Below the pieces are notes generated by a model that was not told the DNA's origin, searched no databases, and saw only the letters and a program-made list of their open reading frames with translations. From positions 416,001 through 480,000 of the forward strand of contig CM000436.1 of assembly GCA_000165345.1 (NCBI GenBank): DNA of 64,000 nucleotides, in the 5' to 3' direction. Shown here piece by piece: positions 2,138 through 58,815 of this stretch. The position numbers were made by a program, and so were the translations under genes. Numbering within the stretch: the stretch's first letter is position 1; every line of letters begins with the position of its first letter.

Positions 2138-2676
2138 ATATCTCCATTTAACCTCATTGTTATAGAATAGCTATATTTTGATAAAATATAATAAAGCTTA
2201 TTAGAGATAGAGAATCAAGTAATAATCATCTTAATAAAGATACTGTTATTTCTCAGGATTAGTATTTTTCAGACTTTAAATTTTAACTTTGACATTTTTT
2301 CTTCTTATAATCTTATTAATTAATAGTGCGTGTACATAAGTGCATGTATATTACTTTTTATTTTGTATTATCCACTTAAACTATTTCATATACCGGTATT
2401 ACATGCAGATACACGTGTTTATAAAGAAAAGCCGCCCCACAGCACATGCAATAATTCATGAGAGTTCCCGCCTTCTAGGAAAGCACCACAAAATAAATTT
2501 AAAGTCAAAATATTAGGCGGATAAAGATAAAAAGGATAAGTTAAATAAGAAATTAAGGGCGTTAATTTCCGAGGTAGTGATAAACATTATTAGCGGAGAA
2601 TTAGGGGTAAGAGAAGGAATCTTGAAAAATCTTATTTGGAGCAAATGTATGAGTGTAACTGAAAGTAAGCTTATCA

Positions 2677-5600
2677 ATGTTAAAGAAGATTTTTGGTAAA
2701 AAGAATGAGGAGGGAGAAGATGGTGTAAAACCAGTAAAAGCTAATTTAGGAGAGGAAAATAAATTCTATTATAATAAGGAGTTAAAAAGTTGGGTTGTTC
2801 GTGGGGAAGAACACTTAGTCGAGCAGAAGCAAAACCTTCCACCTCCACCTCCAAAGAGGCCAACAACAACGGATTCTGGTACTAGGACAGAAAGTATGGC
2901 ATCTTTTTCCTCAGGTTCTCAGAGTACAGGAATAAGAAAGAATTTATATACTTCTACACCTGGATTGAATATTATGAAAAATTCCAAGGAGCAAATAGGA
3001 GGAATAATACCTGCTATAGGCTTTAACTCCTCCAATGCAAATGCAACTTTATTTGGTCCAGTTGGTGCGCCTAATAACAATAATGCTATAGATAACTTGG
3101 ACAATCAAAGTGGAAATTTAGAACCTGGTAAATACGATCCAAAGGATTTAAATGAAAAGCAAGGTATTCAAGAGCAAATCCAGGTTAGAAGTGATTCTAA
3201 AGAAGCAAGAAGAACATCTATTCAAGGAAAGGAACTAGAGGGCGAACATTTAGAGCTGAGTCCAAGCAACTTTGAAGGTTATTCTGCTGAAATTTCCGGG
3301 CTTGGTCGCCATTTACGAGAAGATCAGAACATATCAGTCCCGTCTTCGTCTTATACAAATTTCACTAATCAAAGCAGTGCTAATACAATATCAATAACTA
3401 ATAAAGTACTCCCTCCTATACCATCTTTACCAAATGCAGCTATTTCAAATCGTGATTTAACATATGGAGTATCTCAAAGAAGAGCATCTCTCCAGGATTC
3501 TCCTTTATCGTTTATTTCAACTCCAAATGTAATTCAGAATCCAAAGGATACTTTGGGAGAAAAAATGGAGGAGGCTTCAACATCCCAGAATCAGTACATT
3601 CACCAAGAGATTTCTGGAAAGCAAGTTTGTCAAGAATTTGATTATAATAATATTGGAATTTCAATCCAAGGTTTGAATGAACAGCAAGAAAATATGATGG
3701 AAAGTATGAGAAACCAAGTAGAGGAAAGCAAGATGAACTCAACTATTTCAAATTCAGAGAGTGACCAGACTGAAATCCTATATACTCAGAATGATATGAG
3801 ACAAAGACAAAGAATAAGACCACTGTCTCAGAGAAGTGCTGCTTCAAACGGTATTTCTGGATTAACTGAGAAAAATGAACAAATAGATGTAATTAAAGAA
3901 AAAATGGATATAAATTGGAATAAAGCCTCCTCTGGAGGTGAAGTTGTAAATCATAGAGTGAGCAATACACCAAAAATGGAGTCATCCATTCTTGAGTTGA
4001 TTTCATTTTTTGGATTCAAATATGACGAGAAATCCCAAAAGTTATTGGATAATTTGGAGTATAATGAGAATATGAATATTAGCGAACAACATTATTCTGC
4101 TCAGAAAGAAGAAAAGAGGAGTTTAACACAAGTTTGTATAGATATTAAGGAAAATAAGTTAAAACAAATGAACTTTTTGGTTGGAAAAATTTTCAAAAGT
4201 TTACAAGACTCTAGTAGTGAGTATGATAGTTTATTGGAGATGATTTTGAATATTGGTAACATTACAAATAAGACATTTCAAGAAATTTCAGGGACTATTA
4301 ACATAGTAATGTCCAATAGTGATGAGATTGAAAAGGAGCTTATTAAAACTAGGGGGTTGTATCTAGACTTAGTTAAAAAGTACAAGGCAATATATAAGCA
4401 GTACGAGACAGATATGATAACTTTGAGAAGTGAATTAGAAAATGAGAAGAATATGAACATTACAAATTCTAAAGAGTTTGAGGAGAAGTTAAAGAGGGTT
4501 CAGGATGAGTTTTCATCAAATGAAGCTTCAAATAACGAATTACTGCACCAATATTATTCATATATTCAAGATCTACAACATAGATTTGAAGAAATGCAAG
4601 AGAATATGCAAGGAAAGGATCTTGAGATTAAGATGTCAGAGGAAGAGATTCAGAAGTTAAAATCTGAAATTGAAGAATTAAGAATAAAGTTAGAAGAGAA
4701 AAAAAGAGAGTTTATGCTAGCTTCAGAAAAGTTTGAAGAGTATGAGAGAGAAAATCAGAGATTAAGAGAAAGTAATGAAGAATTGATTTCGCTTTCAAAA
4801 TTGAATGAAGAGAATAGCAAACAAGAAAGAATAGTATTAATTGAGGAGCATAAACAGGAGCTAGAGTTAATGGAGAAGTTCAGTCGCGAGCAAGATGAAC
4901 ATATTAATCAACTTCAAAAGAGTATAGGTGACTTAAGTGAGGAAAGATCTGAGCTACTGAATCAAAGTGAACAGCTAAGGAATGAGATTATGATAATTAA
5001 AGCACAAGTTGAGAACTTAGTAGAAGAGAAGTCTAAGATAGAGGAAGAAGTCTTGACCTTAAGTTCACAAAACCAAGACAAGTCCTCAAGAATTATTGAA
5101 CTAGAAAGTATGATTGGAACTGAGTCACAGAGAATGGAAACAGTTTCTAGAGAAATGGAAGAATTAAAAGGCTTGAATAGTCAGATGGAACAAAAAATAG
5201 AGGAAATTGAAAAGGAAAAGATTCAAATAGAGTCAGAATTAAGACTAGAAAAGGAAAGCTCAGTTGAAAATTTCGAGAAATTGTCAAAAGAATTAGAGGA
5301 AATGACACTAAAGAGCCAGAGTTTAATGGAAGCTTCTAAGGATGAAATGGAGTCTGAGAGAAGAAAGTTGAAGGAAGAGCTGGAATCTAAGACTGAGGAG
5401 TATAATAAGCATATTAATTGGTTAGAAAGTGAAATTTCAAGAGTTGATGAGGAGTGGAGGACAAGACAAACACATATTGAGGCAAACTATGAACAGCTTT
5501 ATGCACAGTATATGGATTTGAGCTCAAGAGAAGGCGAACTTGGAGTTTTACAGGAAAGGGTTAACGAACTTGAATCTGAAAAGGTTAATAGAAATGAGTA

Positions 5601-12659: not shown

Positions 12660-13562
12660 ATTTCAATTCATTAAAATACTTTGAGCATAACAAAGTTTTA
12701 CTTGATGGCCTTGCATGAGAGAATTAGAGAAAGAAAAAGGGATAAAAATAGTCAAACCTATTTTTGTCTTTAATTTTCAACTCAATTCAAATTCACTTTT
12801 TGTGGGGAAAAAATAAATAAAAAGCACCTTTTATTTATTATAAATAAAAATAGTTTGGCGCCATATGTAATTTAATGATTACAAAAAATTTACATTCATA
12901 AGTAAAATTATCAAAGAACTAATTCGAAGAAGGTAAATAAAGAATAAAAAAATTATTAATTCTAAAATTTGTTTAAGATAATCAAGAAGAAGAAAGAAAG
13001 AAAAAAGAAAGATCAAGTGCTTTTTTAAAAAAAGAATAATAATCAATTCATTAATTAAAGATATAGGTAATATAGTTATAAATAAAGATGTTTAAACTTT
13101 GCTAAATAACCCATTATTTAAAATACTTCTTTATTAACTCAAATAACGAAATAAAAATGTTTTATTTGAAATAAATTCGTAAAATTATAAATTGCATGTT
13201 TTTGGCGCCTTTCCACATTTGCAAATTTGCTTTTGTGCATGACGCAGTAGTTATATACCGGTAATGTCATAAATGCAAATGGCGGGTGAGAAGAAATTAT
13301 TAAAAAAATTAGTTGAAATTATTTTATGACAAAAAAAAAGGAAAAATAAAATAAAATAAAATAATACAAAGTTTTTCCTTTAATTTTTTTGAGATTAGAA
13401 GGGAAAAAAGGAAGGGAAATAGAAGATTTGAGTATAGAAAAATTGCAGATAGTTTTATCTGAAATTAATATTAACAATAGGGGAGTGGTTTTGGTTTATG
13501 AAGTAAATATATTTATATTAATATTTTTTTTTCTAGAGAAATAATCTAAAAGTTTAGAAGAG

Positions 13563-14723: not shown

Positions 14724-14737
14724 TTAAATAATATAAA

Positions 14738-17190: not shown

Positions 17191-17424
17191 ATGGAATACC
17201 AAATATAAACTAGCCATTATATATTTAAGTAACTTTATATTAGAAATATAATACTTATAATACAATTCTAAAAATAATAATTATAATAATAAGACTATTT
17301 ACTTGTATTTATCATAATCTTTAATCTCCAATGTCTAAATTTTTAAATGTTATATAAAACTAATATTATTCTATAACAATAATGTATAAAATTTCGAGTG
17401 AATTTATTTATATATAAAAAAAAG

Positions 17425-17498
17425 CGCCGCCACTGGGGATCGAACCCAGGACCACATGGTTAAGAGCCATGCGCTCTACCTAGCTGAGCTATAGCGGC
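17425..17498 (-). tRNA. tRNA-Lys (anticodon CUU)
   Basis: Reverse complement reads GCCGCTA-TA-GCTCAGCTAGGTAGAGC-G-CATGG-CTCTTAA-CCATG-TGGTC-CTGGG-TTCGATC-CCCAG-TGGCGGC-G. 7-bp acceptor stem, D arm, 5-bp anticodon stem with loop CTCTTAA (anticodon CTT), T arm with TTCGATC loop. No encoded CCA. Confidence 0.85.
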
Positions 17499-22723: not shown

Positions 22724-23745
22724 TCTTAATAATTATTAAATAACTTTTCTTAAAACTTCACATAATAAGCTTAATTCCCTCGCATTAAATACATATAAAT
22801 CAAAGAATCTTTTACTATTATTGATAACGATATTGATGATAAATTTATTACCATTCTTCTTAATGACTCATCCTGTTCCATTTTTTCCTTTGTTTGCTTC
22901 ATGGCGCCCAAAATTCCCATTGTTAAACTTGGAATATCAGGGCAATATAACTTCTAAAAACAATATTAAATTTAAATTAAATCATTTCATTTTCTTAGAT
23001 AAGATTATGGGGACAAATTTTGGAGTACTTAAAGGAAATTCTTGCTTAGAATTTGTTCTGTAGTAATCATTCATTATATATACTTTTTCTTATTACAACC
23101 AGCCACCCCTCATTGTGTTTTTCCCGAACACATTTTCCTGGTCAGAAATAGATGGGAGAAAAAAAAATTTGTAATTGTGAAAATACTCACAAACTTTTCC
23201 AAACACTTAAATAGTTTGAAATAATAAAAGTAAATCCACACATCTTTTTCTCGACCTCCCATCTAGACGCTTCCAATTGTTACCTTATCCACTTTATCTC
23301 CCTCGAAAAGCATAATTCATAAGCTTTATTTCTCCACAATTCCCCAAAAAATAACTTACCAACTTTGTGTATAAACCTTCATCTATAACTTTCATCTCCC
23401 CGTCACAATTAATACTGCAAATTAAATTGCTCTCCATTCTTTATAACTTTTTATTTGTTACTAAATTATAGTTCACACCTTAATTCTCCAGAAAAAGGCG
23501 CCAGCTCCCCCTATACCGGCAAACACTTGCAAAGAATTGGTAATACATGCATGTATGCATGTGGACAATAAATTATTAAATTATACACGTGTTAAAAAAT
23601 AATAATGTGTGCAAATAGCAGAGAAGGGGGAGAGGAAGAAAAAAGAAAGTATAAAGAAAGTAAACTCTAAAAAGAAAAAGGAAATAACCAGAGAAGGAGT
23701 AGAAACAAAATAGTAATTAAGCTAGGGAAATAATATATAATCTAG

Positions 23746-26115: not shown

Positions 26116-26631
26116 AAATTGATAAGGTATTAAACTTGGAAAATTATCAACACCTTAAAGATTAACTTTGACTTAATAATATTAACAAGAATTTTTTTCA
26201 TAGGCCAGTCCTAATTCGCCAATTTACATACTCTTTCTCGTTGCTTTATATTCAGAATGTATTATTCACAAAAATTCTGTGGTGCTTTCTTTTGCTTTTT
26301 AATCTTTCTTAATTTCCCCCCAATATCTATTTAGTAAAAAAAAAATTGAATTCCAAAAACTTACAAAATTTCAATCCCTTCAATTTCTCTTGATAATTAT
26401 TTGTAGCAAAATTATCTCAAATCAACCAATAACCAAGTCAAATAATGCTTAGCTTTATTCTCCTCCCTCCTTACACCTCAGTATTTGATATTTTATTCAA
26501 ATTATTTAAAAAAACTATATATAGGATTTTTAGTCTCCAAATCTCAATTCCATCAAAATTTATTGATTTATACTTTTTTTTATTACCTCTACTTTTTTAT
26601 ATTATTTTAATATGCTCACTCTGTGTGGAAC

Positions 26632-26651
26632 TTTCCCGCCTAGGCGGGAAA
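26632..26651. promoter_or_regulatory. Perfect 20-bp palindrome TTTCCCGCCTAGGCGGGAAA (back-to-back E2F-like half-sites)
   Basis: Direct reading; the reverse complement is identical. Located in the upstream region of the MFS transporter gene (minus strand), 13 bp past the stop of the 2120-aa gene. Confidence 0.6.
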
Positions 26652-26663
26652 CCGGGTATCAAT

Positions 26664-29600
26664 TTAATACATATTGTCCAATACACCTGAAGTATTTGAA
26701 TTAAAACCACAGAAATCACTAAAATTTGCTTCAAACACTCCATTAATTAATGTGCAACTTTCTTGAATAAATCCTCCAACGTCATCAATTAGAGCCCATT
26801 GTGGCTCACTTGAGCCTGCATCCTTAATTATCAATAGTTTAAATTTGTCTACAGCTTTTCTGGCAGATAGGAGCTCATTCCCTGAAATATTAAACTGCCA
26901 AATTGGTAGTTTAGTGGTTTTTACTTCTATTAAAGCTAGGACTTGTTGTTTGTAATTCCGGGAAACTGAAAATTCTTCTTCAGAAAAGTATTCTCTTAAT
27001 AGAATGAAGTCAAAAGGAAGAAAACTCTCATTAAGTGAATTTAACCAAATTAGTTTAATAGTTGTCGTATCTGACTCTTTAAAACACTTGATCTTGCATT
27101 TTATAAATAGGTCTCTTTGCTGATCCTGAAATATATTATTATCCTCAATTTTCATATCCTCAATTCCTGTCCAATCTTTCAAGTCTTCCATATCTATTAC
27201 TTCATTTTGAATATAATTATTTACAAACTTTCTAGATAAGTAGTCTTCAATTAAATTATGATCAATAGATTTCAAGGTCAGCTTACGTGAGATTGCATTT
27301 GGGATTATGGCTTCAAAAGAAACTTTCTCACCCCAAAACCCCACCATTTTCGTGATTTCTTCTATTGTAAGACTCTCATCTGTTGCATTTCCCAGAGAAA
27401 GAGGATTTTTCTTTATATATTCTTTGATTATTGAGTCCAAGTTACTCTCTATTACATCTGTATTTTTAGTCATTTCTTTGTAATCACCAGTATTATTATT
27501 TTTAACTTTAATATGTGGATCATTATTATCAGCTTTATTATAATCAACTCTTTTAATTGATAATTCACTTAATAAATCATTTTTTTCAACATGTAATGAT
27601 TTATTTTCAATATCTGTATCTTTTCTTAACAAACATCCGCTTCTTGAACACTTTTTAAGTAGTTCAAAACCTTCTTTAACTACATTATCCACTGTGAAAC
27701 GCTCATCTCTTTTACTACTTAGATCATCCAAAATTGGAACATGTTTTGAAAGTAGTAAAAGTCTTTGTGAGCTGGAAAGAATCAAGAGTTCGTACAAATC
27801 AATATTAATTATACTATTTAAACCTGTCAAACCTTTTAATGGATCCAATAGCAAAGTATACAAATCCTTAAGTTGGTTACTTTTATCCATACTTTTATTC
27901 ACAAGTAATATTGAAGCTGAATTCTTATTGGGAATCTGTCTAAATAATACACCAATCTTCCTTCTGCTCGTTTTTGGTAAATGTTTGTCATTAATATTAA
28001 GATCAAACTTAAGCTCAATATCGTCAACCTCAACTTCATAAGTATTTACAAATGAAATAAGCCAATTAGCTATTTGGTAAGCTATTTCTTCATTTGCATT
28101 AGAATATCTTTCAGAAACTGAAAGTGGCTCGAATTCATAAGAATTTGAAATTTGTTCAAGTATTTCACTTTCGGATACACAAAATTCACAGTCAGTAACT
28201 GAATGATTTGAATTCTTGCTCGTTAAAGATTGTTCACTATCAAAAGTTTTTTTTTCTTCTAATATTCTCATGATTGACAAATAAATATCAAGAGATTTGT
28301 GTTTAAATAAGAGTATCAAGATACCCCAAAATTCCAAAGTTAGCCATATTTTATTTTTTCCTTTATTTGCAAATTTTATATGACTTCTAATATTACGTCC
28401 ATAATTAACTTTATAAGTTACTTTGTAACATTCTGAGAGTGTTTTTACTTTTAAAATATCTTTATAAAAAAATTGAGAACTTGGGGACGATGAAATTGCC
28501 AATGGAATCTGAAAGCTATCACTTCTTAAGCTTCCAATAGGGAAATCTTCCACACAACATTGTTCACGCTTCAGAAATTTATAAATACCCTTAATTGGTA
28601 TCTTTGCGTTATCGAGAAACTCACTCCACCACGAATTCTTTTTAGATTGACTCATTTTCTGAAAAACTTTCAAAAATGTATTAATTGATACGTTAATGAA
28701 AGATTCAAATTTGATTTTTCCTTCTTTAGACTCATCTTTAAGTAAATTTGGGCATTCCCTTAGCCATAAATAAGCATAATGGTGATGTATTGGTTGTTCT
28801 GAAACTAAAGATAAAAAGAATGGTCTTAAATTACTAATTTTACTTTTATTAATAAACTTGCTGAGAACAATAAATGTTCCATGAAAGAAATCATATGGAT
28901 CTGACCAAACCATATTATTATAATCAATAGGTACCCAATTATACAAAGTACTCTTCATCAATGGAATATAAAGCAAACTTTCATTGTAAAATACCTTTTT
29001 AATGTTCATTGAAATATCAAAATCTGTCTGATGGCCTAAAATATGATAAATATCAGAAATCATTTCGATGTCCGAGGGGCGATGAAGGCTTCGGTTTAAT
29101 GAATTATCATCAAAATTTGACCATTCATCCATTAAAGAAGGCCACCAATCTGAAGCAAATAACTTTTCTTTAGTTATACCAAATCCAAAAATTGCCAATT
29201 CTATAATATGGTTTAAATCAGGGTCATATGAAGGCTTTAATTTGATCTGCCTACTTTTTTGAACCACTTCATTATCCCTAATATTCATTACCCTCTTATA
29301 ATCTCGCAAAATTCGAATTAAAGATATGGAAGAAATCTGAGTTGTGACGCCAACCTCTTCCAAAGTTTCTGATATTAGTTTTGATTCATTACCAATATCT
29401 TCCTCTGTTCTATTTAATGTATAATGAGCAGAACAAGGTTCATTATTTTCACGTGATTTTGGAATCTTATATCCATTCCTTAAAGTTACTGGTAACAAAT
29501 TCAATACAATTTGAGAGATATGCTTAATAATTCCATCCAAGTTTTTATTAATTTTGGGAATAAACAGTTCACTCGGTCTGCTTAATAGCAAATCTTCACA

Positions 29601-32600
29601 AAAATCCACCGTATCACAATCTTGTATTTGTTCATTATTAATCTGGCTCATATAATAGCTAAAATAATTATCATTATATAATGAAATTGGTATCCATGGG
29701 TAACTTGATAATATTTCATTCAAAAAAGATGAGTTATATGAACGTCTTGAATATTCATTAGCTATTTGGATGATTGCTCCAGCTCTCATTACATAAATTA
29801 AATGTTTACAATAAAAACAATGCGATGAACTAATTGGATAAATATTTCTATCAACCATCCAACTCAATGGAGATGCATCTGTTTTTGGAGGTAATCTATC
29901 AAAGTTACATCCTACATACCACTGTTCAAGAAGGTTAATAAATTTATTAGTGAATACCCTGAATGCCAAATCTTTATCATTCTCATTTAAATGATCCGAA
30001 TTTTGGACGATATAATCTGATGATATCTCCACAAAGTGAAACCTATCAGATACTTTTGGAAATACCCATTCAACCAATGGAGGCCATAAAGGAGGGACAA
30101 TCGTCAAACCTTTGTATTCAAATGATTTATCGGAATTATATATTGAAGTTTTGTCTTTAACATTTTTCCGATTGCTATTTGATGTTTTTAGTTGGTCAAA
30201 ATTTGAATATGACTTTGAACTAAACTTATTGGACCTTTCCCAGCTTGAATGAAGTAGAATTAAAGATGTCAATGACTTGCTTACCTGAGACATTCTTAAA
30301 GCTACAGAAGTAGGATACACCATAACCTCATTTTCTCTTGTTTCATTCTTGCATCTATTACACTTCAAACTAGATGTGATCATTCTAGAACACCTAGCCA
30401 GTTTGTTCTTGTTTAACAACTCTTCTTCATTTGCATAGCTTTTTGGTAGATCCTTATTGTAAAGTAAAGCCTTTAAAAATGAAGGAGAATAAGTCTGAAC
30501 TACTATTGGAAGCTTAATTAGAAAGCGATTATCATCCTCTACAATGCTTGCCTCCTCTATTGCCAAAGGAGTAATTTTGAGAAGTAGTTTCTGTATATCA
30601 CTATTAATTGCATTTTCCCATCCTTTTTCGAGTAATAAATCAACCTGTTCAGCAATTAATTTAAAAAAAATAGATGGAGTTATCTTCTCAATCTTAAAAT
30701 CTTGGTTAATCATGCTCTTTATTCTGTATGGAGCTATTTTATATACCCTATCACTAAAAAATTCAAATGGGCATACTTTTCCTATTATTTCGGAATACTT
30801 TTGCAAGCAATGTTCTTGAAAGTAACTATCAAACGATTCATCTGAAATGTAAACTTTCACAATACTCGATTTTTCTATAGAAACTCTCTTACCCTCCCTA
30901 GTAGGTATAATTGGCAAACCTGAAATTCCTTCAAATTCTTTCAAACTTTCCACATCTCCTTCTTTCTGAGGAAATAAATAGCTATATAATATTAATAATT
31001 CCTCATCAGAAATACTCTCCAAAAATTTCAAAGGTTTCAATTCTAAAAAAATCTTCAATATATCCAAATTCCTTACATTATATGATGATATTATTTGTGC
31101 TACCAAAACTTGCAACATTTGCAATGGCCTCGTGCAAAGAAAATGCATGCATGTGTGCCCGCCTATCAGTGAGGGGTGCAATACCGGTCTCATGTGGACA
31201 CTCAGCATGTAGAGAAAATTCCAATGTAAATTGCAAAAAATACAAAAACCTTCATGGAAAGTATTGTTTTTTATGCAAAGATCATTGAATTGAATATTCG
31301 TGGAAATTTTATCAAGAAAGCAAAATGAGCCATCAATGTTCATAAACACAGGCTTTTTGACTAACTCATCAATACAAATCGAAGATAATGTGCAATAGTT
31401 TTGGCATTGGTTCAGGTTGTCAAGTTTTGGCGGGAGCCAACTAAATTTAATAAATTCTGAAGTATTTAAAACGAATGGTTTTAAGTTGTAATCAAAGCTT
31501 GATTCCTGCATTGTTTGTAACGGCAAAGACTTTGAAGTGAGTAAATTACTCATAAAAAGAGAATATTTTTGGTTAATTAAGCAAGATTTTCTTGAGCATG
31601 ATAATTTTGGATTAATCATACTAGCAACAAATTGTGGGATTTGTTTCTTGAAAATAACATCAAGAATTGTAGAATTCCAGATATTGTCAGCCATGACATC
31701 CTCTCTATTTGCTGTTAAAATCAAATCTTGGATATTAACATGAAATGGAAGATAGATTCTATGGTTCAAAGGGAACGTACAAAACAACTTTCCTGTAACC
31801 CTTTTATGTTTTCCAAAAGTTGATGAACCAAACGAGAATGAAGATGAGTTTATTATCCTTTCACCTTTATCTATTTCAAGTCTCAAATTTGAATGGAACA
31901 AAGGAAGAGCAATAGACCATACTGTTGAAGATCTTGTAGCTCTATCTCTGAGAGTGGAGCTCTCAAGCTTTTGATCCTCTGAAATTGGTATTTCCCAGTC
32001 CACTATAAGGTATTTAGAAGAAATTAAACTCTCTCTTAATAGTTTTCCTTTATTCAAATCTAAATCGTCATCATCAAATTGGGCTATCTCAATTTTTGTA
32101 AATCTGAAACTTTTTATTGAAGAAAGACTATCATCTTTGAATTCATCTAGGTTGAAAGTTTCACCTAGACTTTGAGAAATATCAGGAACTGAAATCAAGT
32201 CATTTAAAGTTAATCTCCTTCTTAAAAGTGGATAAATTGTATTCTTTTCAAAGGAACAAAAATCCGAGTCTTTTCTGGGCTCAACATCTACCACTATTGA
32301 TTTAATATTTCTCAAAAAGAGAAGAATATCATGTACGAAAGTGTTACGAATTGCAGATAAAATTGATGAGAATTTCTGTTTCATGTTCTTCTCAAATGGA
32401 AGATAGTGCAATGTTCCTAAGTTGCTTGAACTTTGGACAAATTTAGGCCCAAATTCAGATCTTATATTATCAAACCTCCAAGGAGTCCCATATAAACTAA
32501 TATTTGAATGAATTGTTTTTACTACTTCTGGGAAATCTGACTCTTCTATCCATTTTGGTACAATATAACTCAATTCAATTTCTTCATCAGGTTTACTTGA

Positions 32601-33026
32601 AAACTTTATAGAGTATCCACCACTAAATATACAAGGATTATCAGTTATTTTAAATATTGACCTATATCCAATACCTTTTTCTCCTGTAAAATATCTTGAT
32701 TCTGAATTCTTTTTAGACGAATTTCCAATATCGCATACAGACTCGATATTTTCACGTGTCATCCCTTTTTCATTTATATGGAATACCAAACAATCCCATC
32801 TTAACAATATGTAAACTTGAGGGATACCCTCACCTATTTCATTAAAATTAAAGTTAGAGTCATCTGCATTCTGAAGAAGCTCCAATAATACACGTCCAAA
32901 AGATGAATAAAGTTCATTTGATAATATTCCTATTGACCTGTCTTGCCTGTCTCTTTGAGATTTATTTGAAACGAATAAGCTCTCTCTTATCTCTTGAATG
33001 TGCTTCTTTGTTTGTTCATTTTGCAT
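26664..33026 (-). CDS. Very large protein (2120 aa) with N-terminal sacsin/NOV-like GHKL (HSP90-like) ATPase domain
   Basis: N-terminal motifs RVLLELLQNADDS (N-box, cf. sacsin ELIQNADDA) and GEKGIGYRSIFKITDNP (G-box, GxGxxS). The remainder has no recognised domains. Confidence 0.55.
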   Translation of the reverse strand: MQNEQTKKHIQEIRESLFVSNKSQRDRQDRSIGILSNELYSSFGRVLLELLQNADDSNFNFNEIGEGIPQVYILLRWDCLVFHINEKGMTRENIESVCDIGNSSKKNSESRYFTGEKGIGYRSIFKITDNPCIFSGGYSIKFSSKPDEEIELSYIVPKWIEESDFPEVVKTIHSNISLYGTPWRFDNIRSEFGPKFVQSSSNLGTLHYLPFEKNMKQKFSSILSAIRNTFVHDILLFLRNIKSIVVDVEPRKDSDFCSFEKNTIYPLLRRRLTLNDLISVPDISQSLGETFNLDEFKDDSLSSIKSFRFTKIEIAQFDDDDLDLNKGKLLRESLISSKYLIVDWEIPISEDQKLESSTLRDRATRSSTVWSIALPLFHSNLRLEIDKGERIINSSSFSFGSSTFGKHKRVTGKLFCTFPLNHRIYLPFHVNIQDLILTANREDVMADNIWNSTILDVIFKKQIPQFVASMINPKLSCSRKSCLINQKYSLFMSNLLTSKSLPLQTMQESSFDYNLKPFVLNTSEFIKFSWLPPKLDNLNQCQNYCTLSSICIDELVKKPVFMNIDGSFCFLDKISTNIQFNDLCIKNNTFHEGFCIFCNLHWNFLYMLSVHMRPVLHPSLIGGHTCMHFLCTRPLQMLQVLVAQIISSYNVRNLDILKIFLELKPLKFLESISDEELLILYSYLFPQKEGDVESLKEFEGISGLPIIPTREGKRVSIEKSSIVKVYISDESFDSYFQEHCLQKYSEIIGKVCPFEFFSDRVYKIAPYRIKSMINQDFKIEKITPSIFFKLIAEQVDLLLEKGWENAINSDIQKLLLKITPLAIEEASIVEDDNRFLIKLPIVVQTYSPSFLKALLYNKDLPKSYANEEELLNKNKLARCSRMITSSLKCNRCKNETRENEVMVYPTSVALRMSQVSKSLTSLILLHSSWERSNKFSSKSYSNFDQLKTSNSNRKNVKDKTSIYNSDKSFEYKGLTIVPPLWPPLVEWVFPKVSDRFHFVEISSDYIVQNSDHLNENDKDLAFRVFTNKFINLLEQWYVGCNFDRLPPKTDASPLSWMVDRNIYPISSSHCFYCKHLIYVMRAGAIIQIANEYSRRSYNSSFLNEILSSYPWIPISLYNDNYFSYYMSQINNEQIQDCDTVDFCEDLLLSRPSELFIPKINKNLDGIIKHISQIVLNLLPVTLRNGYKIPKSRENNEPCSAHYTLNRTEEDIGNESKLISETLEEVGVTTQISSISLIRILRDYKRVMNIRDNEVVQKSRQIKLKPSYDPDLNHIIELAIFGFGITKEKLFASDWWPSLMDEWSNFDDNSLNRSLHRPSDIEMISDIYHILGHQTDFDISMNIKKVFYNESLLYIPLMKSTLYNWVPIDYNNMVWSDPYDFFHGTFIVLSKFINKSKISNLRPFFLSLVSEQPIHHHYAYLWLRECPNLLKDESKEGKIKFESFINVSINTFLKVFQKMSQSKKNSWWSEFLDNAKIPIKGIYKFLKREQCCVEDFPIGSLRSDSFQIPLAISSSPSSQFFYKDILKVKTLSECYKVTYKVNYGRNIRSHIKFANKGKNKIWLTLEFWGILILLFKHKSLDIYLSIMRILEEKKTFDSEQSLTSKNSNHSVTDCEFCVSESEILEQISNSYEFEPLSVSERYSNANEEIAYQIANWLISFVNTYEVEVDDIELKFDLNINDKHLPKTSRRKIGVLFRQIPNKNSASILLVNKSMDKSNQLKDLYTLLLDPLKGLTGLNSIINIDLYELLILSSSQRLLLLSKHVPILDDLSSKRDERFTVDNVVKEGFELLKKCSRSGCLLRKDTDIENKSLHVEKNDLLSELSIKRVDYNKADNNDPHIKVKNNNTGDYKEMTKNTDVIESNLDSIIKEYIKKNPLSLGNATDESLTIEEITKMVGFWGEKVSFEAIIPNAISRKLTLKSIDHNLIEDYLSRKFVNNYIQNEVIDMEDLKDWTGIEDMKIEDNNIFQDQQRDLFIKCKIKCFKESDTTTIKLIWLNSLNESFLPFDFILLREYFSEEEFSVSRNYKQQVLALIEVKTTKLPIWQFNISGNELLSARKAVDKFKLLIIKDAGSSEPQWALIDDVGGFIQESCTLINGVFEANFSDFCGFNSNTSGVLDNMY

Positions 33027-39308: not shown

Positions 39309-40523
39309 ATGATGATTACAAAAGGAGGAGATTACTCAGAATATTCAGAAATACATACACAGGATATTGAGAAATCTAAAGATTATGACCAAGAATGTGT
39401 AGAATTAAGGAAAAGTGTGAGAGAATATCTCGAAAAAGAAAGCAAAATAAACTTATACTTTTCAGAAAAGAAGAGTTATTTGATAAACAAAGAATTTGTA
39501 GATATTCAGGTCCAATTAAACTCACAACTTTGCCCAAAAGTTAAACTTTGGAAACGAATTGAAGAACCAAACTCAAAAGAATTCTCCAAATTAAAAAATA
39601 ACCCAACTCAACATCTTTTTGCAATTAAAATCTATTCAAAACCCCAACTCATTCGGAGAAACATTGTCTATTCTTCAGACAGGAAAATCAGGACCCAAAT
39701 GCATCGTGTAATTAACGAAATCAAGATTCTACAATTCCTTGCAAAAACCGATCCCACATACTACTATATTGCTAAATTACACAAAGTTCTTGAATCTTTT
39801 CCTTCTACCTTATCTTCCGGAAAATTGTATCTCATCTTTGACTTTTTTCCGATTGGACCCACAATGGCGCCCGACACAGGGGCAAGGCGCGCGCGCGCGT
39901 GCCCGGGGTTTGAAAAGAATCTTTTAGTGTATACTCCAAGTCCTGCATTAGAGAGGACAGAGGTAAGTATAAGGAGAATGGCTTACTGTATTGGAGTAGC
40001 TCTATCTAGACTTCATGAGTTAGGGATTGTTCATAGAGATGTAAAACCTGATAATATTATGCTTACACATACTGGAGATGCATTTTTGAATGACTTTAAT
40101 TCTGCAGAATTTTTAATTCAAGGTAAATATGTTCAGGGCACTGAAGGAACATATGCATTTTTTCCTCCTGAGCATTGTAATATAAACAACAATAGCAATA
40201 AAATTGTTACTGAAAGGAACGAATCATCCGAAATCAATGAACAAGAAGAATGTTCCCAATCTACGCTCCAATTGGGATGTCCAGCAGATATGTGGGCTCT
40301 TGGAGTCACAATTTGGTGTTGGTTTTATGGTACACTACCTTTTCAAGGAAATAGTATTTTAGAGCTTTTTGACAATATTACAAAATGTAAGATTGAGTTC
40401 CCTAGACAGCCTACTTTATCAAATGAGTGTATTAATGCCATTTTGCATCTTTTAGACCCAGAACCGAATTCCCGTTGGACTGCTCGTCAGTTTCTTGAGT
40501 CCGACTGGTTTTCTAAAAACTAA
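39309..40523 (+). CDS. Divergent Ser/Thr protein kinase with a GC-rich insertion in the catalytic domain
   Basis: Kinase subdomains FAIKIYSK (VAIK), EIKILQFL (alpha-C Glu), LYLIFDFFPIG (hinge), IVHRDVKPDNIML (catalytic loop), DFN instead of DFG, GTEGTYAFFPPE (APE-like), DMWALGVTIWCWFYGTLPF. Confidence 0.75.
   Translation: MMITKGGDYSEYSEIHTQDIEKSKDYDQECVELRKSVREYLEKESKINLYFSEKKSYLINKEFVDIQVQLNSQLCPKVKLWKRIEEPNSKEFSKLKNNPTQHLFAIKIYSKPQLIRRNIVYSSDRKIRTQMHRVINEIKILQFLAKTDPTYYYIAKLHKVLESFPSTLSSGKLYLIFDFFPIGPTMAPDTGARRARACPGFEKNLLVYTPSPALERTEVSIRRMAYCIGVALSRLHELGIVHRDVKPDNIMLTHTGDAFLNDFNSAEFLIQGKYVQGTEGTYAFFPPEHCNINNNSNKIVTERNESSEINEQEECSQSTLQLGCPADMWALGVTIWCWFYGTLPFQGNSILELFDNITKCKIEFPRQPTLSNECINAILHLLDPEPNSRWTARQFLESDWFSKN
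39866..39915 (+). repeat. GC-rich island with an alternating (CG)6 tract (GGCGCCCGACACAGGGGCAAGGCGCGCGCGCGCGTGCCCGGGG) inside the kinase CDS
   Basis: About 80% GC over roughly 50 nt in a genome of about 30% GC. Encodes an in-frame insertion (MAPDTGARRARACPGF) between hinge and catalytic loop. Confidence 0.8.
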
Positions 40524-46347: not shown

Positions 46348-47787
46348 TTAACCCCATGTCTCCTTTAAAATAGTTGATAAATCCTCCTTTGTAACTGTTG
46401 CAGGATTTGTATGAATAGCTTCATCACTTAAAGCTCTAGAAATCATTCTATCCAAGTTCATTTGTAATGTATTGAAATTTAAATTATCAATTACACTCTT
46501 TTTACTAAGAATTGGTATTGTCCTCAATGCATTTTCTTCTGTAACATAGGCTCGAGTTTCTTTATCAGATATTGAAAATGATCCAGATACATGATTGATA
46601 AATTCTTGATTATCTATTTCTATACATTGCGAGAATACTGACAATTTAACACCTATTGGGTCAAACCATCCTTTAGACTTGAAATTAGATAGAGAAGAAT
46701 GAATTGAACTGAGAGAATCTGGAAGTAAGAGAGTCTTTTTTATTTCATCAATTCTGTTTAAAAGTGCCTGTATTTTATTAGAATTTGAATCTTCTGGGTT
46801 ACTTATTCCAAGTTCAACTGAAAGATTTGCAATCAAAGGCCCCACAGTCTGGCTTTTCTTTATATTAAAGTTGAGCACTTGAGTAATCACAATACTGTCA
46901 ATAAGTCCATGAGGAAGTGTAAATACTTCTGAAATACTTCTGGATAAGATTGTTCCAAGACCTACATCAGTTGCTGAAATTGCAACTCCAGATATTGAAG
47001 CAGCCTTATGGATTTCTTGCAATAAACTAATATCCTTCTCAATGACAGCTTTAGTCAAACTATTAAATAAAATTCTTAAAGACTGAATAGCCATACATGA
47101 TGAATAATGGTTTGAAGAATTACTAATGTAAGACTCTAATCCATGAAGAAGAGCTCTCATACCTGTAATAGAAGCCACAAACATTGGAATTGTTAATATG
47201 AAACTCGAGTCTATTACTGATATATCTGGTAAAAACGCCACACCTGAAACTATCATTTGTCTGCCATCATCATTCCTTAAAACCGCCGTAGATGTCACTT
47301 CTGACCCAGAACCACATGTTGTCGGAATGCATACCAACTTCTTTATTAAACTCCCTCTTCTATGTATCATTGCCTTTTTTGAACTCTTTTCCTTATCATT
47401 ATTGTTAGTTCCCATTGCAAGTGAACGCAAAGTCGTATTCGGATCCTCGTATAAAACTCTTAGTACTTTTGCTATATCCATACAATGTCCTCCACCCATC
47501 CCTATTATACAGTCAGGCTTATATGATTTCATCTGCAAAAGAATTGTGCTTAATGCATTCGCATCTGACTCACATAGCTCAGAAAACTCTATTTGAATTC
47601 CATTCTTCTTCACCATCGACTCAACTCTCATCGCCTGACATTTTACTGCTGAAGAAAATACCAATATGGCTCGCCCCACATTTGAATCCAACAAATCTGA
47701 GATTATATCTCTAAAGGAATCCATATTATAGTATATTATTGGTGTAAGAATTAACATTTTTTTTATCTTAACAACTATATTAATCAA
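46348..47787 (-). CDS. Iron-containing alcohol dehydrogenase (Fe-ADH family), monofunctional paralog of the AdhE C-terminal domain
   Basis: Fe-ADH motifs KPDCIIGMGGGHCMDIAKVLRVLYEDP and KLVCIPTTCGSGSEVTSTAVL. Collinear with the ADH half of the adjacent AdhE (KPDCLIGFGGGSPMDASKLVRLMYEHP and RFICIPTTSGTGAEMTPFAVI). Confidence 0.8.
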   Translation of the reverse strand: MINIVVKIKKMLILTPIIYYNMDSFRDIISDLLDSNVGRAILVFSSAVKCQAMRVESMVKKNGIQIEFSELCESDANALSTILLQMKSYKPDCIIGMGGGHCMDIAKVLRVLYEDPNTTLRSLAMGTNNNDKEKSSKKAMIHRRGSLIKKLVCIPTTCGSGSEVTSTAVLRNDDGRQMIVSGVAFLPDISVIDSSFILTIPMFVASITGMRALLHGLESYISNSSNHYSSCMAIQSLRILFNSLTKAVIEKDISLLQEIHKAASISGVAISATDVGLGTILSRSISEVFTLPHGLIDSIVITQVLNFNIKKSQTVGPLIANLSVELGISNPEDSNSNKIQALLNRIDEIKKTLLLPDSLSSIHSSLSNFKSKGWFDPIGVKLSVFSQCIEIDNQEFINHVSGSFSISDKETRAYVTEENALRTIPILSKKSVIDNLNFNTLQMNLDRMISRALSDEAIHTNPATVTKEDLSTILKETWG

Positions 47788-48086
47788 TATTTACCCAAAT
47801 TTTCTCAAAAAAAAAATACTCTTTAGCTCAAAAAAATACTTTAAATGACTATTTTTCACAACAAATTGTCCAACTGCCATTACTGTCAAAAGTGCATGCA
47901 AACATGCAATTTATTCTCTACATTACGTCATTCCACTTAGGCGCCAAACCTTAAGTAAAATCCTATACCGGGTAATATATTGAAAAAAAATTATATTAAT
48001 GGATCAACCAAAAATTGTACAAAAATATTAAAAGTCGTCTCAGATGGTTCCTAAAGTTAACAAATTAGTTTGATGTTTATTAATAC

Positions 48087-48496
48087 TTGGTTATTTATAC
48101 TCTAATTGGGAGTAACATTTTAATAATGACCGAGATTGAGGTAGCTTTGAGTTTTACTTCGTTTTTAATGCTTGTACTTACAAGTAGTATTCCTAATTTG
48201 TACAGATACATTGCATTGCTGTTAATTGAATTATGTTCGTGTATTATTGTTTCCATTCTACTTATTATCAAGCCCAAGTCTAATCAACGTTCTCTCTTAC
48301 CCACTATTGCATTAATTTCATATTCACTTATTAATGGTTTTATTGGAACTATTCTAACTATTTTTACTGCTTTTTTCTTGGGAGCTCACCTTGTTGACTT
48401 TGGAACCATTGTATTGTCTCTTTATTTTGGATTGGTTACTTTTAGAACATGTATATTTACTGGTTTTAAAAGTCTATTAGTTATGATTATTAAAAG
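48087..48496 (+). CDS. Small multi-pass membrane protein, exon 1. The track ORF ends at 48500 on a TAA that overlaps a GTAAGT donor
   Basis: 136 codons, almost entirely hydrophobic helices. ORF terminates ...ATT AAA AG|GTAAGT, i.e. the stop codon is part of a consensus splice donor. Confidence 0.35.
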
Positions 48497-51714: not shown

Positions 51715-52620
51715 CTTTAATTAGAAGAAAAATATATAAATAATAATCAAATCCAAGTTAATTCATATTTTTGGAGCTAGGAACAATCTGTTCCTCAATT
51801 TTCTCTTACCTTTTTTAATAATTCATCCAAGGACTCAACAGAATCGACCAGCTTTCCAATGCTCTGTGATACCTCAGGAATGTAAGCACTCATATTTGAA
51901 AATCTGGAAAAATAATAAACAGTGTATTTATTTTCTTAATAATTATTTTCCTATAAATTATTCTCTAGCTCTGCTGATTAGTTTATTTACTCATTTTTTT
52001 TAATATCGCATGTAAACTCTACAAAAGTAGGCCGGTAAATACAAAAATTGCATGTAAACAATAAAAATGCATGCAATCCTCGAATTTCTGTCAAATTTTA
52101 AATTATTGAACTTATTTTCGATTCTTATGAATACTATTATTTTTAATGCTTTACTATTCGCCTTTTTCATTTATATACTAATTGATTCAAATACACAACA
52201 ACTTATTCCATTTCTTTAATTCTTCTGACATTGCTAGCTAAAAAAAATTTTGTAAATAACTAAATTTCAAAATAAATAAAATAGCATAATCCTGTAATTA
52301 CCTAGAATTAGTTTCATTAGAACAATACGTTGATGGAATCCTCTATTCAAATCCTTCTATTTACTTTCACATATTTTTTTTTTTACCTATTCGTCATTCA
52401 CAAAAATCCTATACCGGCATTAAATTTAGGCGCCAAAACTAATTATTTTCTCTTTTTCTATTCCATTTCAACATATAATAAGATTAACAAGTTAAAGCCA
52501 ATTTTATTTCTATAGAAATTTGGGGAGTTTTTTTTTGTAAAGTTTCTCCTTAAATTAATTGCTCCCCCTCAACTTTCTACTTTCAGTTTTATTTATACCC
52601 CACAACATGGAAAGGCAATT

Positions 52621-56700: not shown

Positions 56701-58239
56701 CTCATCATTTATATCTGATCTAAAGGTTCCTTTGTGAGTATAGCTGACATATTGGATTAGGGATGACAATACAAAAAAGTAACTTATAGGAGATGGAGCT
56801 GAAAGATATTTGATCGGAGGGAGGTAGAACGGGGATTTAAATTGGGTATTTGAATTTCTGAGATGGGTTCCACATAACCCCACACCTGCATGCACACCGG
56901 TATAGGAAGATTTGGGAGAATATGGGAAGGTACCATTATAATAGCATCCTCCAAGAAAATTATTTGAAAATGTGAGATATGTTGAAATAGTGTTTTGGAG
57001 TTGTCCAGGGTAGTTTTTTCCATTTAAGAATGGTCTTTTAGAGAAGTACATGCTAGAGAGTACAGTGTTTCTGGATATAGTAGAGTCATTTTTTGAGTAT
57101 TTTGAAATAAACCTTTTTGGGGGTAAATCTTTAAGGTAATTGATATTGAATGGATTGGAAGAATTATTAGCATAATTCCAAAAAGGGTCCATAGGGTAAT
57201 AGAATAAATAGTTATTTACACAGTTTGTACTACTGTTGGATGGAAGATTAGATGGCATAACCACTCTAATAGGTGAGACACCTAAGGGAATGTTTGTCCA
57301 ACCAAAAGGTACTGCAGAATTATATTCGTTGGTAGTAACATTATTTTGGATTGCAATGAAAGCTCCTTGAGCAGAGTTTATAATAGGGGGTTGGAAACCT
57401 GCAAACCTTTCTTTAGGCTTCCAAATCCCAGATGTTAGGTCAGAATCATATCTTCCATATGAAAAGGTCATGTTAAAGAGATCAACATATGAGTGATCTG
57501 GAGGATCAGATTCTTGGATTGAGCTTCCAGGAAGGACCTCTGGAGGAAGGTCTATTTTATATTTAAATGGTAGAACAACCATATCTGAGAAAGAATTAGC
57601 CAAATTTAGGACACTTGCAACATTAACCCAATTTTCACTATAATAATGTTGCTGGAGCCAGGTAAGGACTGGATCAGGAGAAGGAGTAGTTGAGACACCT
57701 TCTTCCACAATACTCGCAAGTGCATCTCCAATTATAGTTCCTGGTATGAGGAAAGTGAAGTTAGTAGCTGAGGTAGATTGGATCATGGTTGGCTCAAAAT
57801 TATTCAAGTAATCTACAACCATGTTGCAGGCAACATAGTAGCTTGAGGTTTGGTTAACAGAGATGGATCCAAAAGCTGTAGAGATCCAGATTGGGTCAGT
57901 TAAGCCTGCATGATTACATGAGAATGAGATTGGATTACTTTCAAAAACATAGTTAATATTCTTGAGGCTGATTACAATTGGGTACATATAAGAGCAAGGA
58001 GTTAAAATAGCTGGGAATCCGATAGTAGACCATAAAGAAAGGTCGTATCTAGGCTGGTTTGCTAAATCATCAATTTTGATATCCATTCCCCATGCACCTT
58101 GGGCTATTGTACTATTTGGAAACATGGGATTGACAGTGTAGCTTTCTGGCATAAGCTGGGAGAGGACTAGGCTATTTTTTAGCCAGGAAATTTGAATAAG
58201 AAAAATAAGGAGTAGGCATGGGATTCTCCTTAATAGCAT
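53719..58239 (-). CDS. Large secreted protein (1506 aa) with cleavable signal peptide, Cys-containing and rich in N-glycosylation sequons. Lineage-specific extracellular protein
   Basis: N-terminus MLLRRIPCLLLIFLIQISWLKNSLVLSQ is a textbook signal peptide. No internal TM helices. Dozens of NxS/T sequons. No recognised domain. Confidence 0.6.
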   Translation of the reverse strand: MLLRRIPCLLLIFLIQISWLKNSLVLSQLMPESYTVNPMFPNSTIAQGAWGMDIKIDDLANQPRYDLSLWSTIGFPAILTPCSYMYPIVISLKNINYVFESNPISFSCNHAGLTDPIWISTAFGSISVNQTSSYYVACNMVVDYLNNFEPTMIQSTSATNFTFLIPGTIIGDALASIVEEGVSTTPSPDPVLTWLQQHYYSENWVNVASVLNLANSFSDMVVLPFKYKIDLPPEVLPGSSIQESDPPDHSYVDLFNMTFSYGRYDSDLTSGIWKPKERFAGFQPPIINSAQGAFIAIQNNVTTNEYNSAVPFGWTNIPLGVSPIRVVMPSNLPSNSSTNCVNNYLFYYPMDPFWNYANNSSNPFNINYLKDLPPKRFISKYSKNDSTISRNTVLSSMYFSKRPFLNGKNYPGQLQNTISTYLTFSNNFLGGCYYNGTFPYSPKSSYTGVHAGVGLCGTHLRNSNTQFKSPFYLPPIKYLSAPSPISYFFVLSSLIQYVSYTHKGTFRSDINDETRKFKKIYPGNGLLHSLLIATASNQPFIFYNLPSFVNHDTSITLGSEFYQFSERYINRNFGNYATPGSGMTCRAARFVPMKRDMYSLKTAWQCKTKKTTSTNTWQDMIEVPRDEITSCKLNNEFVTCLNTPDSQNQFIGMVNTAPEEHVTTLKASSFKTTDYLAITVTIFTDTISYTSPSKGISVKLFSPPISGFLSPEYCSKIPMIPMIPTTVQQIFIIYPTVKAWDHLHNTKYSFLIPFNKVLQIRHKVVLGKTSGISINKEFYVSAYLYCESIRRVSGTPSVSKISIADFSNLGGSMIITTKYPVLQNSKFSNCIHELIISESSSPRTTFISYETLIQSNPQPNTNEFVSIEFGAVDFPPTVGKLSLYQPEEKGASIGDSIFLTLSNLAFSNTEQDEGFASFGIIASSSQIIGQNSTVIFLGDSLTQLPPSLRLPATSKEWFVYIRAQTVTFSGCYIPCQPPFKDSFYSHWCSNDLSLLNSFPCPFSKVLMKTKDSQSEIEDAIAVVTHPLAYTTPIETIQLVSALFEENKDNLLIWKNYFESIYSTAFELQNIPQGYDFASFKLMSLYILKKIYKVAYENPKLNLDVTRPFEILMNITLNAECTSSPSVSNLVLETLDLLVASNGWSRILGDSNLESTISHMLESVGNRFSFWTYNKDSLDWKGKESGISLSVITLDEVFTRRSTSLNGMAISGFRFNEIKKLSPVESIYFQAYPEEYDSEMLEFASRSCPNTSATISSYTYPRKYISNMLIENAVRKVSRPIPIGGGALYLCSIDYYAYGTPTVTFSLPLSFEIPVNMTNIGCSMLSDSVWREDLCTSNISPSKQESKQFVIECSCQGLAPYALIGTINSTEIDNGNFGDSSGNDGRAPIPPMNNRWDGISGNLTNLGISKDLAIELINSSYSGFIYLDEKVRTPYIPPKAQKALEGSKGIAGLYTEMGRSQYIGNISSTWGLNAGEAWFNSSVAKGGDANVESFLSWEPVNTTKKNN

Positions 58240-58815
58240 TGTGACTCTGTTATAATAAGTAATTTTTTAGGTTTAAATTTTCAGAGATTTCAATGCTTTC
58301 CACTGTTTCATCAGGTTTAATTCTTTTTTTGAATTTTGCAGAGTGGGTTTTTTCATTTTTGATTTACCACACTTTTTTCCTTTTTCAAAAAAAAAAAAAA
58401 AAAACAACTAATTTGTTATAAACACTAATTTACAATACTTTTCTAGGAGAATTCATAGTATTAATTTTCTTTAAAATAGCTTAGATTTTTAGTATTATCT
58501 ATTCTAAGACTTTTAATAGTAAAGAATGTTAGCTTCAATTGAGCTCAATATTTAGAAATGAACATAATAACCTCCTCGACCCTTTTAAAATAAAGTTTAC
58601 CACTCATTATCAAACATCTTATAGGTGGATTTTCAAATTTAAGATGAAAATATTCTCAATATAAATTTCAGATTAATTCTAATAATTTTTACTTCAATAT
58701 ATTAGGTCATATATGTGGAATGCATGTTTTTGGCGCCAATTCGAAGTTTAATACCGGTAAATATTAAGTAGAAAAAAATGAACCGGGAAAATATTGTGCC
58801 TTTAAAAAGTGGGGA

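Follow-up and report, generated by a model that had tools for sequence, protein, structure and literature searches.

Cryptosporidium parasites, a major cause of diarrhoea in children, regulate their genes in ways that are poorly understood. To our knowledge, the only regulatory elements known in these parasites are E2F/DP sites, a few ApiAP2 motifs and several further words, and most of the predicted DNA-binding proteins have no known target. Here we describe a short promoter word, ATACCGG, which recurs in a 64-kb window of Cryptosporidium parvum chromosome 8 (the window being the whole stretch of DNA analyzed) and which was first noticed beside E2F-like GGCGCC boxes in a reading made from the letters alone (the sequence-only reading). 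All motif results refer to this one 64-kb region and to its syntenic counterparts in other Cryptosporidium.

Known promoter motifs and their relation to the locus

The E2F-like upstream motifs described in C. parvum are motif 3 (DTTGSCGCCH) and motif 4 (TTTGGCGGGAAV) (Oberstaller et al. 2013, PMC3734150), and an E2F-like motif predominates in the open chromatin of sporozoites, as mapped in peaks of the assay for transposase-accessible chromatin with sequencing (ATAC-seq) (bioRxiv 10.1101/2025.01.17.633476). The C. parvum ApiAP2 motifs include TGCAT, CACACA, the G-box G[T/C]GGGG and GGTGCACC (Oberstaller et al. 2014, PMC4117751). The closest published counterpart to the new word comes from the oomycetes. 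In Phytophthora infestans, the high-confidence palindromic promoter motif M94 reads TACCGGTA (PMC3597505), and in Plasmopara halstedii the motif streme-5, ATACCGGTAT, lies upstream of 206 genes (PMC10031896). The oomycete M94-type motif is tied to stage-induced and effector genes.

At our locus, the GGCGCC half is, by its sequence, the documented Cryptosporidium E2F/DP-type motif and holds nothing new. Five boxes (13204, 23497, 47940, 52429 and 58732) fit the E2F/DP consensus in Table 1 of PMC3734150 (TTTSSCGC core or DTTGSCGCCH), and the boxes TTTTGGCGCCTT, TTAGGCGCCAAA, TTTAGGCGCCAAAA and TTTTTGGCGCCAAT match the published E2F-like motif in lying in promoter regions as well, so that the E2F-like label given to GGCGCC by the sequence-only reading is borne out. 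The ACCGG word, in contrast, is outside that family. ATACCGG is unlike every one of the 25 upstream motifs, in 11 families, published for C. parvum (PMC3734150 Table 1), and the strings ACCGG and CCGGT do not occur in the main text of that paper or in the part of its supplement that was covered. They are likewise missing from the texts of PMC1779779, PMC4117751, PMC7840661, PMC11078545 and the 2025 review PMC12246861. In full-text searches on Cryptosporidium, TACCGG or ACCGGT was met in primer sequences only, besides the oomycete paper. The ApiAP2 motifs occupy the same promoter neighbourhoods, AP2 domains read words of similar length and some of them have no assigned motif, but no motif that PMC4117751 names in its text (as distinct from its figure logos) resembles ATACCGG. 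The ATACCGG half is a genuine and conserved cis-element that is apparently missing from the catalogues, and the remark that the partner of the E2F-like box could not be assigned to a known family agrees with the lack of a match in the published C. parvum motif sets checked.

Enrichment of ATACCGG in promoter-bearing gaps

The window has a G+C content of about 32%, and its genes are tightly spaced and mostly without introns. Three of the encoded proteins are present, identical at every residue, on one chromosome in each of three NCBI assemblies, one of which is GCA_015245375.1 (record CP044415.1). The closest relatives of these proteins are annotated as C. meleagridis, C. ubiquitum, C. felis, C. 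canis, C. bovis, C. ryanae and C. andersoni, and the locus tag cmbei_8001581 indicates chromosome 8. Annotation was carried over from the matching records, giving 27 genes and 26 intergenic gaps, which make up 17.5% of the window; 18 of the 26 gaps face at least one gene start and are referred to as promoter-bearing. For TATACCGG and ATACCGG, the expected counts come from 100 dinucleotide-preserving shuffles of the window.

The 8-mer TATACCGG has six exact matches (2389, 13254, 23512, 47964 and 52410 on the plus strand and 56897 on the minus strand) against 0.19 by shuffle, and six were reached in 0 of 100 shuffles. Its 7-mer core ATACCGG is matched 10 times, at nine loci (0.91 expected), a count that none of the 100 shuffles attains, and GGCGCC has 12 matches against 0.35 expected. 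The enrichment of ATACCGG is real and far from chance, as had been claimed for the 8-mer from the sequence alone. Six of the nine ATACCGG loci are intergenic (2390, 13255, 23513, 47965, 52411 and 58751; sites 1 to 5 and 7 below), despite the small intergenic share of the window, and they occupy six separate promoter-bearing gaps, about one third of the 18. The three loci in coding sequence (7884, 31181 and, on the minus strand, 56897) were absent from the sequence-only reading. In an unguided scan of the 18 promoter-bearing gaps for 6-8-mers, with a second-order Markov background, ATACCGG/CCGGTA ranked third (7 observed vs 0.5 expected), and the only motif families above it were TGCATGCA and the E2F words (GGCGCCAA, GGCGGGAA).

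Conservation across Cryptosporidium

Syntenic loci were compared in C. meleagridis, C. ubiquitum, C. felis, C. ryanae, C. andersoni and a Cryptosporidium sp. represented by a public sequencing-run assembly (hereafter Cryptosporidium sp.). In five of these, all but C. andersoni, orthologous promoters retain the core. C. meleagridis and C. ubiquitum are the close species of the set, and in both the motif falls in invariant blocks. At site 1, the invariant run ATACCGGTATTACATGCA found in these two species begins exactly at the motif, and the DNA upstream of it is unalignable in C. ubiquitum.

The intergenic DNA of C. felis, C. ryanae and Cryptosporidium sp. is no longer alignable to that of C. 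parvum. In these three diverged species, ATACCGG is found in 7 of 12 orthologous promoter gaps vs 0.44 by shuffle (Poisson-binomial P ~4e-8), and the 6-mer TACCGG in 11 of the 12 vs 1.64 expected. The 13 other promoter gaps of the same loci contain ATACCGG in 0 cases (Fisher P = 0.0016) and TACCGG in two (P = 0.0002). Because the orthologous gaps carry the word and other gaps of the same loci do not, ATACCGG is tied to particular promoters and held there by selection, and this pattern of sequence retention indicates that it is a real, selected cis-element. The suggestion that both boxes are promoter elements is likewise upheld, with six ATACCGG copies in six promoter-bearing gaps and conservation in the orthologous promoters.

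Individual sites illustrate how the words persist. Site 3 is kept in C. felis as GGCGCC, 12 nt, TATACCGGC and, further on, ATACATGCATG, in surroundings that are otherwise unrelated. Site 4 is kept in C. felis as GGCGCC, 17 nt and CATACCGGC; in C. ryanae, TTACCGG stands directly ahead of GGCGCC, so that the order is flipped and the boxes are still adjacent. Site 7 is kept as GGCGCC plus AATACCGG in C. parvum, Cryptosporidium sp., C. felis and C. ryanae. Enrichment of the motif is seen as well in the intergenic DNA of these species' loci, which range in G+C from 32% to 55%. The syntenic C. felis loci (L013, L015) have 44-55% G+C vs about 32% in C. parvum, a large shift in composition through which short promoter motifs persist.

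Anatomy of the motif

The bases A-T-A-C-C-G-G are invariant over the six intergenic copies. The preceding positions favour T-(C/T)-(C/A)-T, and the base that follows is T, C or G, then usually A, which gives the extended consensus T-Y-M-T-ATACCGG-Y-A. The exact palindrome TACCGGTA is present at three of the six sites (2390, there as ATACCGGTAT; 13256; and 58752), and the other three are non-palindromic, with ATACCGG followed by C or G. In the orthologs of site 7, the base after AATACCGG is T, C, T and A in C. parvum, Cryptosporidium sp., C. felis and C. ryanae, respectively. Because the base after ATACCGG varies (T/C/G/A) across sites and orthologs, the near-palindrome, which the sequence-only reading had taken as the unit, is not what is selected; the selected unit is instead an asymmetric 7-8-mer in which the palindrome is optional. 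The asymmetric core suggests recognition by one DNA-binding domain rather than by an obligate symmetric dimer, and the palindromic copies would just present one site per strand. The plus strand carries ATACCGG at eight of the nine loci, despite neighbouring genes in both directions, which may be chance.

Oomycete M94 is identical in sequence to the palindromic form at 2390, 13256 and 58752, and it too is a predicted promoter motif, conserved among related species, in another lineage of the supergroup of stramenopiles, alveolates and rhizarians (SAR). It differs in that the palindrome is not required in Cryptosporidium, where three of the six sites are exact and the eighth base varies across orthologs. 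The match is best taken as a word identity in two SAR lineages and not as evidence of common descent, as an 8-mer identity can be coincidence.

Relation to the E2F box and other promoter words

At five sites, ATACCGG lies 51, 16, 25, 18 and 19 nt from the nearest GGCGCC. The sequence-only reading had listed a GGCGCC-type box near the motif in six gaps; the box is canonical at these five, and at 2390 the only one near is GCCGCCCC, 41 nt off. ATACCGG is nearer to E2F boxes than under uniform placement in the same gaps (median 22 nt, P ~0.001-0.007, 6 sites). TGCATG/CATGCA boxes likewise cluster at E2F sites (median 30-45 nt, P ~0.001 vs random placement), and because they are equally concentrated, closeness to E2F is a general trait of promoter motifs here. 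The arrangement is most simply described as a promoter core of roughly 100 bp in which several short sites are packed together: E2F, TGCATGCA, ATACCGG, TGTGGA, the G-box and an ACGT-core word.

The last of these, an ACGT- or CGTCA-core word (TACGTCATT, TTCGTCATTC, TGACGCA), is seen 20-40 nt from ATACCGG at 47924-47932, 52390-52399 and 13240-13246, and TACGT is retained at site 4 in C. felis and C. ryanae. By its sequence, this recurrent word looks like a bZIP/cAMP-response-element (CRE)-type site, and it is not among the published motifs met. Boxes of the form (CA)TGTGGA(CA) stand alongside motif clusters at 23555-23565, 58709-58719 and 31195-31204, and resemble the A[T/A]G[T/A]GGA.A word upstream of oocyst wall protein genes (PMC3734150). 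Just beyond the stop codon of a 2120-aa gene, positions 26633-26652 form a double E2F site, TTTCCCGCCTAGGCGGGAAA, that is a perfect palindrome of 20 nt; both C. meleagridis and C. felis retain it, the latter with a single change.

Proposed explanation and alternatives

ATACCGG is probably the recognition site of a sequence-specific DNA-binding protein. The predicted factor would bind ATACCGG in the ~100-bp promoter core of a subset of genes, a core that also holds E2F/DP sites (GGCGCC, GGCGGG) and ApiAP2-type TGCATGCA boxes, and it may help to open or activate about one third of the promoters in the window alongside E2F/DP; the activating effect is inferred only. No rigid composite element is part of the proposed mechanism. 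Candidate binders are an ApiAP2 domain without a protein-binding microarray (PBM) motif, a Myb protein annotated as DNA-binding or a C2H2 zinc finger. Examples are domains D3 and D4 of cgd6_5320 among the AP2 domains and cgd6_4510, cgd3_2510, cgd3_1120 and cgd5_110 among the Myb proteins. The genes near the motif are varied (a zf-C2H2_2 gene, a ThiF-family enzyme, an Fe-ADH with its PIG-F-like neighbour, a small gene that contains an intron and two proteins in which no domain is recognised), the distance from motif to ATG is ~75-310 nt and the promoters are often divergent. Such a mixed gene set is more in keeping with a factor in broad use than with a narrow regulon.

A closer coupling to E2F was part of the sequence-only reading, which suggested a cooperative pair of transcription factors behind two boxes that always stood together. 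A true bipartite composite, with cooperative binding of E2F/DP and an ACCGG factor and with the pair as the unit of function, would account for the 16-51 nt that separate five of the six intergenic copies from GGCGCC. Sites 3, 4 and 7 stay 15-25 nt from their E2F box in C. meleagridis, Cryptosporidium sp. and C. felis while the spacer has changed (in C. felis, in sequence and, by a few bases, in length), and at site 4 of C. ryanae the two boxes were rearranged and are still 10 nt apart. The preserved distance in C. felis and the adjacency after rearrangement in C. ryanae are some evidence in favour of a functional link to E2F. Against a composite unit, the spacing ranges over 10-51 nt and both orders are seen (reversed at 52410 and at C. 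ryanae site 4), so that the constant spacing and order of a fixed bipartite element are not found. Canonical GGCGCC is lacking near site 1, which has only GCCGCCCC, and near C. ryanae site 2, where no E2F box lies within ~240 nt. The claim that the partners always occur together was overstated, since three of the eight gaps with GGCGCC lack ATACCGG and the co-occurrence at the level of gaps is marginal (hypergeometric P = 0.03-0.07). The TGCATG/CATGCA boxes are just as near to E2F, and proximity does not mark out this pair. We regard the bipartite composite as unlikely, and the reading as a cooperative pair is upheld only in part.

The functional mixture of the genes served, together with the TATA that begins five of the six intergenic copies, could also point to a core-promoter element used by the general machinery, whether a TATA-like box (TATA-CCGG) or an initiator that sets where transcription starts. 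This is very improbable, as the TATA part is not conserved (the orthologs include AATACCGG, CATACCGG, GATACCGG and TTACCGG, with ACCGG invariant), the motif is present in only a third of promoters at 75-310 nt from the ATG, and at site 3 it is antisense to the sole adjacent gene start. An element acting in RNA, for example a protein-binding word in the 5' untranslated region, would fit the excess of plus-strand copies noted above and the conservation at site 1, which runs from the motif to the ATG. It is hardly credible when half of the copies are palindromic, most lie in divergent promoters, 160-310 nt from the plus-strand ATG and among DNA-level motifs (E2F, TGCATGCA), the copy at site 3 is antisense to its gene and no structured RNA was detected. 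With a small sample of nine loci in a single 64-kb window, the pattern might also come from chance, from base composition or from what is left of a dispersed repeat. With no shuffle among 100 reaching the counts, no repeat family, unrelated flanks and conservation specific to orthologous promoters, the probability of such an origin is practically negligible.

For the reading of ATACCGG as the site of a DNA-binding protein, several points have to be set on the other side. Its function is deduced from conservation; a common function is not evident among the genes served. The data come from one region with its syntenic loci, and it would be odd for three published surveys to miss a motif present in a third of promoters, so that the region may be atypical. 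The copy at 52410 (site 5) has no counterpart in C. felis or Cryptosporidium sp. and is the least conserved of the six. C. andersoni has no ATACCGG copy at the three orthologous promoters examined. These three promoters have 15-24% G+C and are almost without GGCGCC, GCATGC or ACCGG words, and because they are nearly devoid of all three motif families, C. andersoni is uninformative on deep conservation. The promoter architecture of this gastric species seems very different from that of the intestinal ones.

A bolder version of the same reading is that ATACCGG(TA) is the site of an ancient general promoter factor, shared with oomycete M94 (TACCGGTA) and predating the expansion of ApiAP2, which together with E2F/DP would open many, often bidirectional, promoters in the compact genome of intestinal Cryptosporidium. 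We consider this a long shot. If true, such an ancient shared factor would stand next to E2F and ApiAP2 as a third pillar of transcription in Cryptosporidium. A motif held at the same promoters amid unalignable intergenic DNA is in any case a ready-made probe (e.g. TCCTATACCGGTAAT) for DNA-affinity capture and DNA affinity purification sequencing (DAP-seq), and it can be used in the design or dissection of promoters in transgenic parasites. Comparison of promoters between species finds elements that are overlooked by surveys of co-expression clusters.

Analogous factors and rejected identities

Reb1 of yeast, a Myb-family general regulatory factor, binds TTACCCG, and its sites lie in many functionally unrelated promoters, within the nucleosome-free region. 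The Reb1 site is a plausible mechanistic analogy, being a short asymmetric CG-containing word whose form TTACCCGG resembles TTACCGG/ATACCGG, but the Cryptosporidium core has two C's, not three. Identity with a Reb1-type site was rejected, the conserved core being (A/T)TACCGG and not TTACCCG. TACCCGG occurs twice in intergenic DNA, once as the reverse reading of site 4 and once at 26652-26658; the latter copy, beside the double E2F site (26631-26660), is not kept in C. meleagridis or C. felis. The Drosophila DNA replication-related element (DRE, TATCGATA) and its factor DREF act with E2F sites in replication-gene promoters. The DRE, too, is an 8-mer with a partial palindrome and stands with E2F sites in compact promoters at no fixed distance, but its sequence is unlike that of ATACCGG, with 0 copies of TATCGATA in the window, and the likeness is an analogy only.

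Other identities were tried and rejected. The Grainyhead/CP2 site (AACCGGTT) has 0 copies in the window, and the flanking bases of our motif are T/A rather than A/T. For the plant DREB-type AP2 site, TACCGAC has 0 copies and RCCGAC one, which is coding. The ETS and c-Myb consensus words are absent or without intergenic enrichment in the window. A TATA box was discarded on the grounds that TATA becomes AATA, CATA, GATA or TTA in orthologs while ACCGG stays. A dispersed repeat, which the sequence-only reading had named as a possible refutation, was checked: the sites are not covered by any repeat family, and the sequences flanking the six copies bear no relation to one another. Rfam and ARAGORN find only a tRNA-Lys gene (17424-17498) in the window and no RNA gene at the sites. 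This tRNA-Lys (CTT) gene is on the minus strand, in the gap that separates a 570-aa gene from a 330-aa gene.

The individual sites and their genes

Site 1, CATATACCGGTAT (full palindrome ATACCGGTAT; 2387..2399, plus strand), lies 287 nt upstream of the ATG (2677) of a 1205-aa gene, at the 5' edge of a conserved promoter block. The GCCGCCCC box (2431..2438, plus strand), an E2F-like variant rather than canonical GGCGCC, follows at 41 nt; it overlaps a G-box (GTGGGGCGGC on the opposite strand) and is unchanged in three species. The E2F-like boxes at the remaining sites are given without strand. Site 2, TATACCGGTAA (13254..13264, plus strand), is 308 nt upstream of the ATG (13563) of the zf-C2H2_2 gene. 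Its E2F-like box TTTTGGCGCCTT (13204..13209), 51 nt upstream, is retained in C. ubiquitum and gone in C. meleagridis, and a GGCGGG box follows the site at 13281. The ortholog of site 2 is identical in C. ubiquitum, GTACCGGTAAT in C. meleagridis and, in the orthologous divergent promoter, AATACCGGC in C. ryanae. Site 3, CTATACCGGC (23511..23520, plus strand), is preceded at 9 nt by the E2F-like box AAAAGGCGCCAG (23497..23502) and lies 75 nt from the ATG (23437, minus strand) of the small intron-containing gene; its orthologs are TATACCGGC in C. meleagridis and C. felis and GATACCGGC in C. ryanae.

Site 4, CCTATACCGGG (47962..47972, plus strand), and its E2F-like box TTAGGCGCCAAA (47940..47945) share the divergent Fe-ADH/PIG-F-like promoter, which spans 367 bp from 47758 to 48124. 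At site 5, CCTATACCGGC (52408..52418, plus strand; 211 nt upstream of the ATG of the ThiF-family gene at 52621), the ACCGG box comes ahead of the E2F-like box TTTAGGCGCCAAAA (52429..52434). A variant, AGGCCGGTAAATAC (52029..52042, plus strand), lies by TGCATG boxes ~140 nt upstream of the AdhE ATG. Judged by its letters, it is possibly a weak or degenerate copy of the motif, and Cryptosporidium sp. (L018) has TTTACCGGC in its place. Site 7, TAATACCGGTAAAT (58749..58762, plus strand), is 186 nt upstream of the ATG (58937) of a 491-aa gene, and its E2F-like box TTTTTGGCGCCAAT (58732..58737) is unchanged in four species. The coordinates of the sequence-only reading held to within 0-11 nt, and they were poorest for this last pair (GGCGCC at 58732 and TAATACCGGTAAAT at 58749, not 58716 and 58739); AGGCCGGTAAATAC is placed at 52029, not 52021.

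Among the copies in coding sequence, the ATACCGG at 31181..31187 (plus strand) lies in the 2120-aa coding sequence (26664-33026, minus strand), amid a promoter-like cluster of TGCATGCATG, CCCGCCTA and CATGTGGACA. The stretch 31135-31205 is dense in such promoter-type words (TGCATGCATG, CCCGCCTA, AATACCGGT and CATGTGGACA). The word at 31181 is retained in C. meleagridis (L012, ~1575) and C. ryanae (L014, ~1171), which coding constraint could account for. The cluster may be an internal or antisense promoter; antisense long non-coding RNAs are frequent in C. parvum (PMC7840661). In the 1506-aa coding sequence (minus strand), TATACCGG at 56897..56904 (minus strand) adjoins GCATGCA and a G-box. A G-box (CCCCACACC), GCATGCA and ACCGGTATAGG occur together there at 56870-56910, and the cluster is retained in Cryptosporidium sp. 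(L018, ~9256), for which coding constraint could again account.

Beyond the left edge of the window, upstream of it, C. meleagridis and C. ubiquitum share a conserved GTATACCGGTAATTC with CCACAT, CGTCATT and GCATGCA nearby (L010 ~1057-1065, L011 ~878-886). It lies ~500 nt inside the annotated 5' end of a 1603/1624-aa gene in these two species, and its position points either to a gene start annotated too far upstream or to an internal promoter. Within the window, a GC-rich island, GGCGCCCGACACAGGGGCAAGGCGCGCGCGCGCGTGCCCGGGG, is located at 39866-39915 in a kinase coding sequence that otherwise has ~33% G+C.

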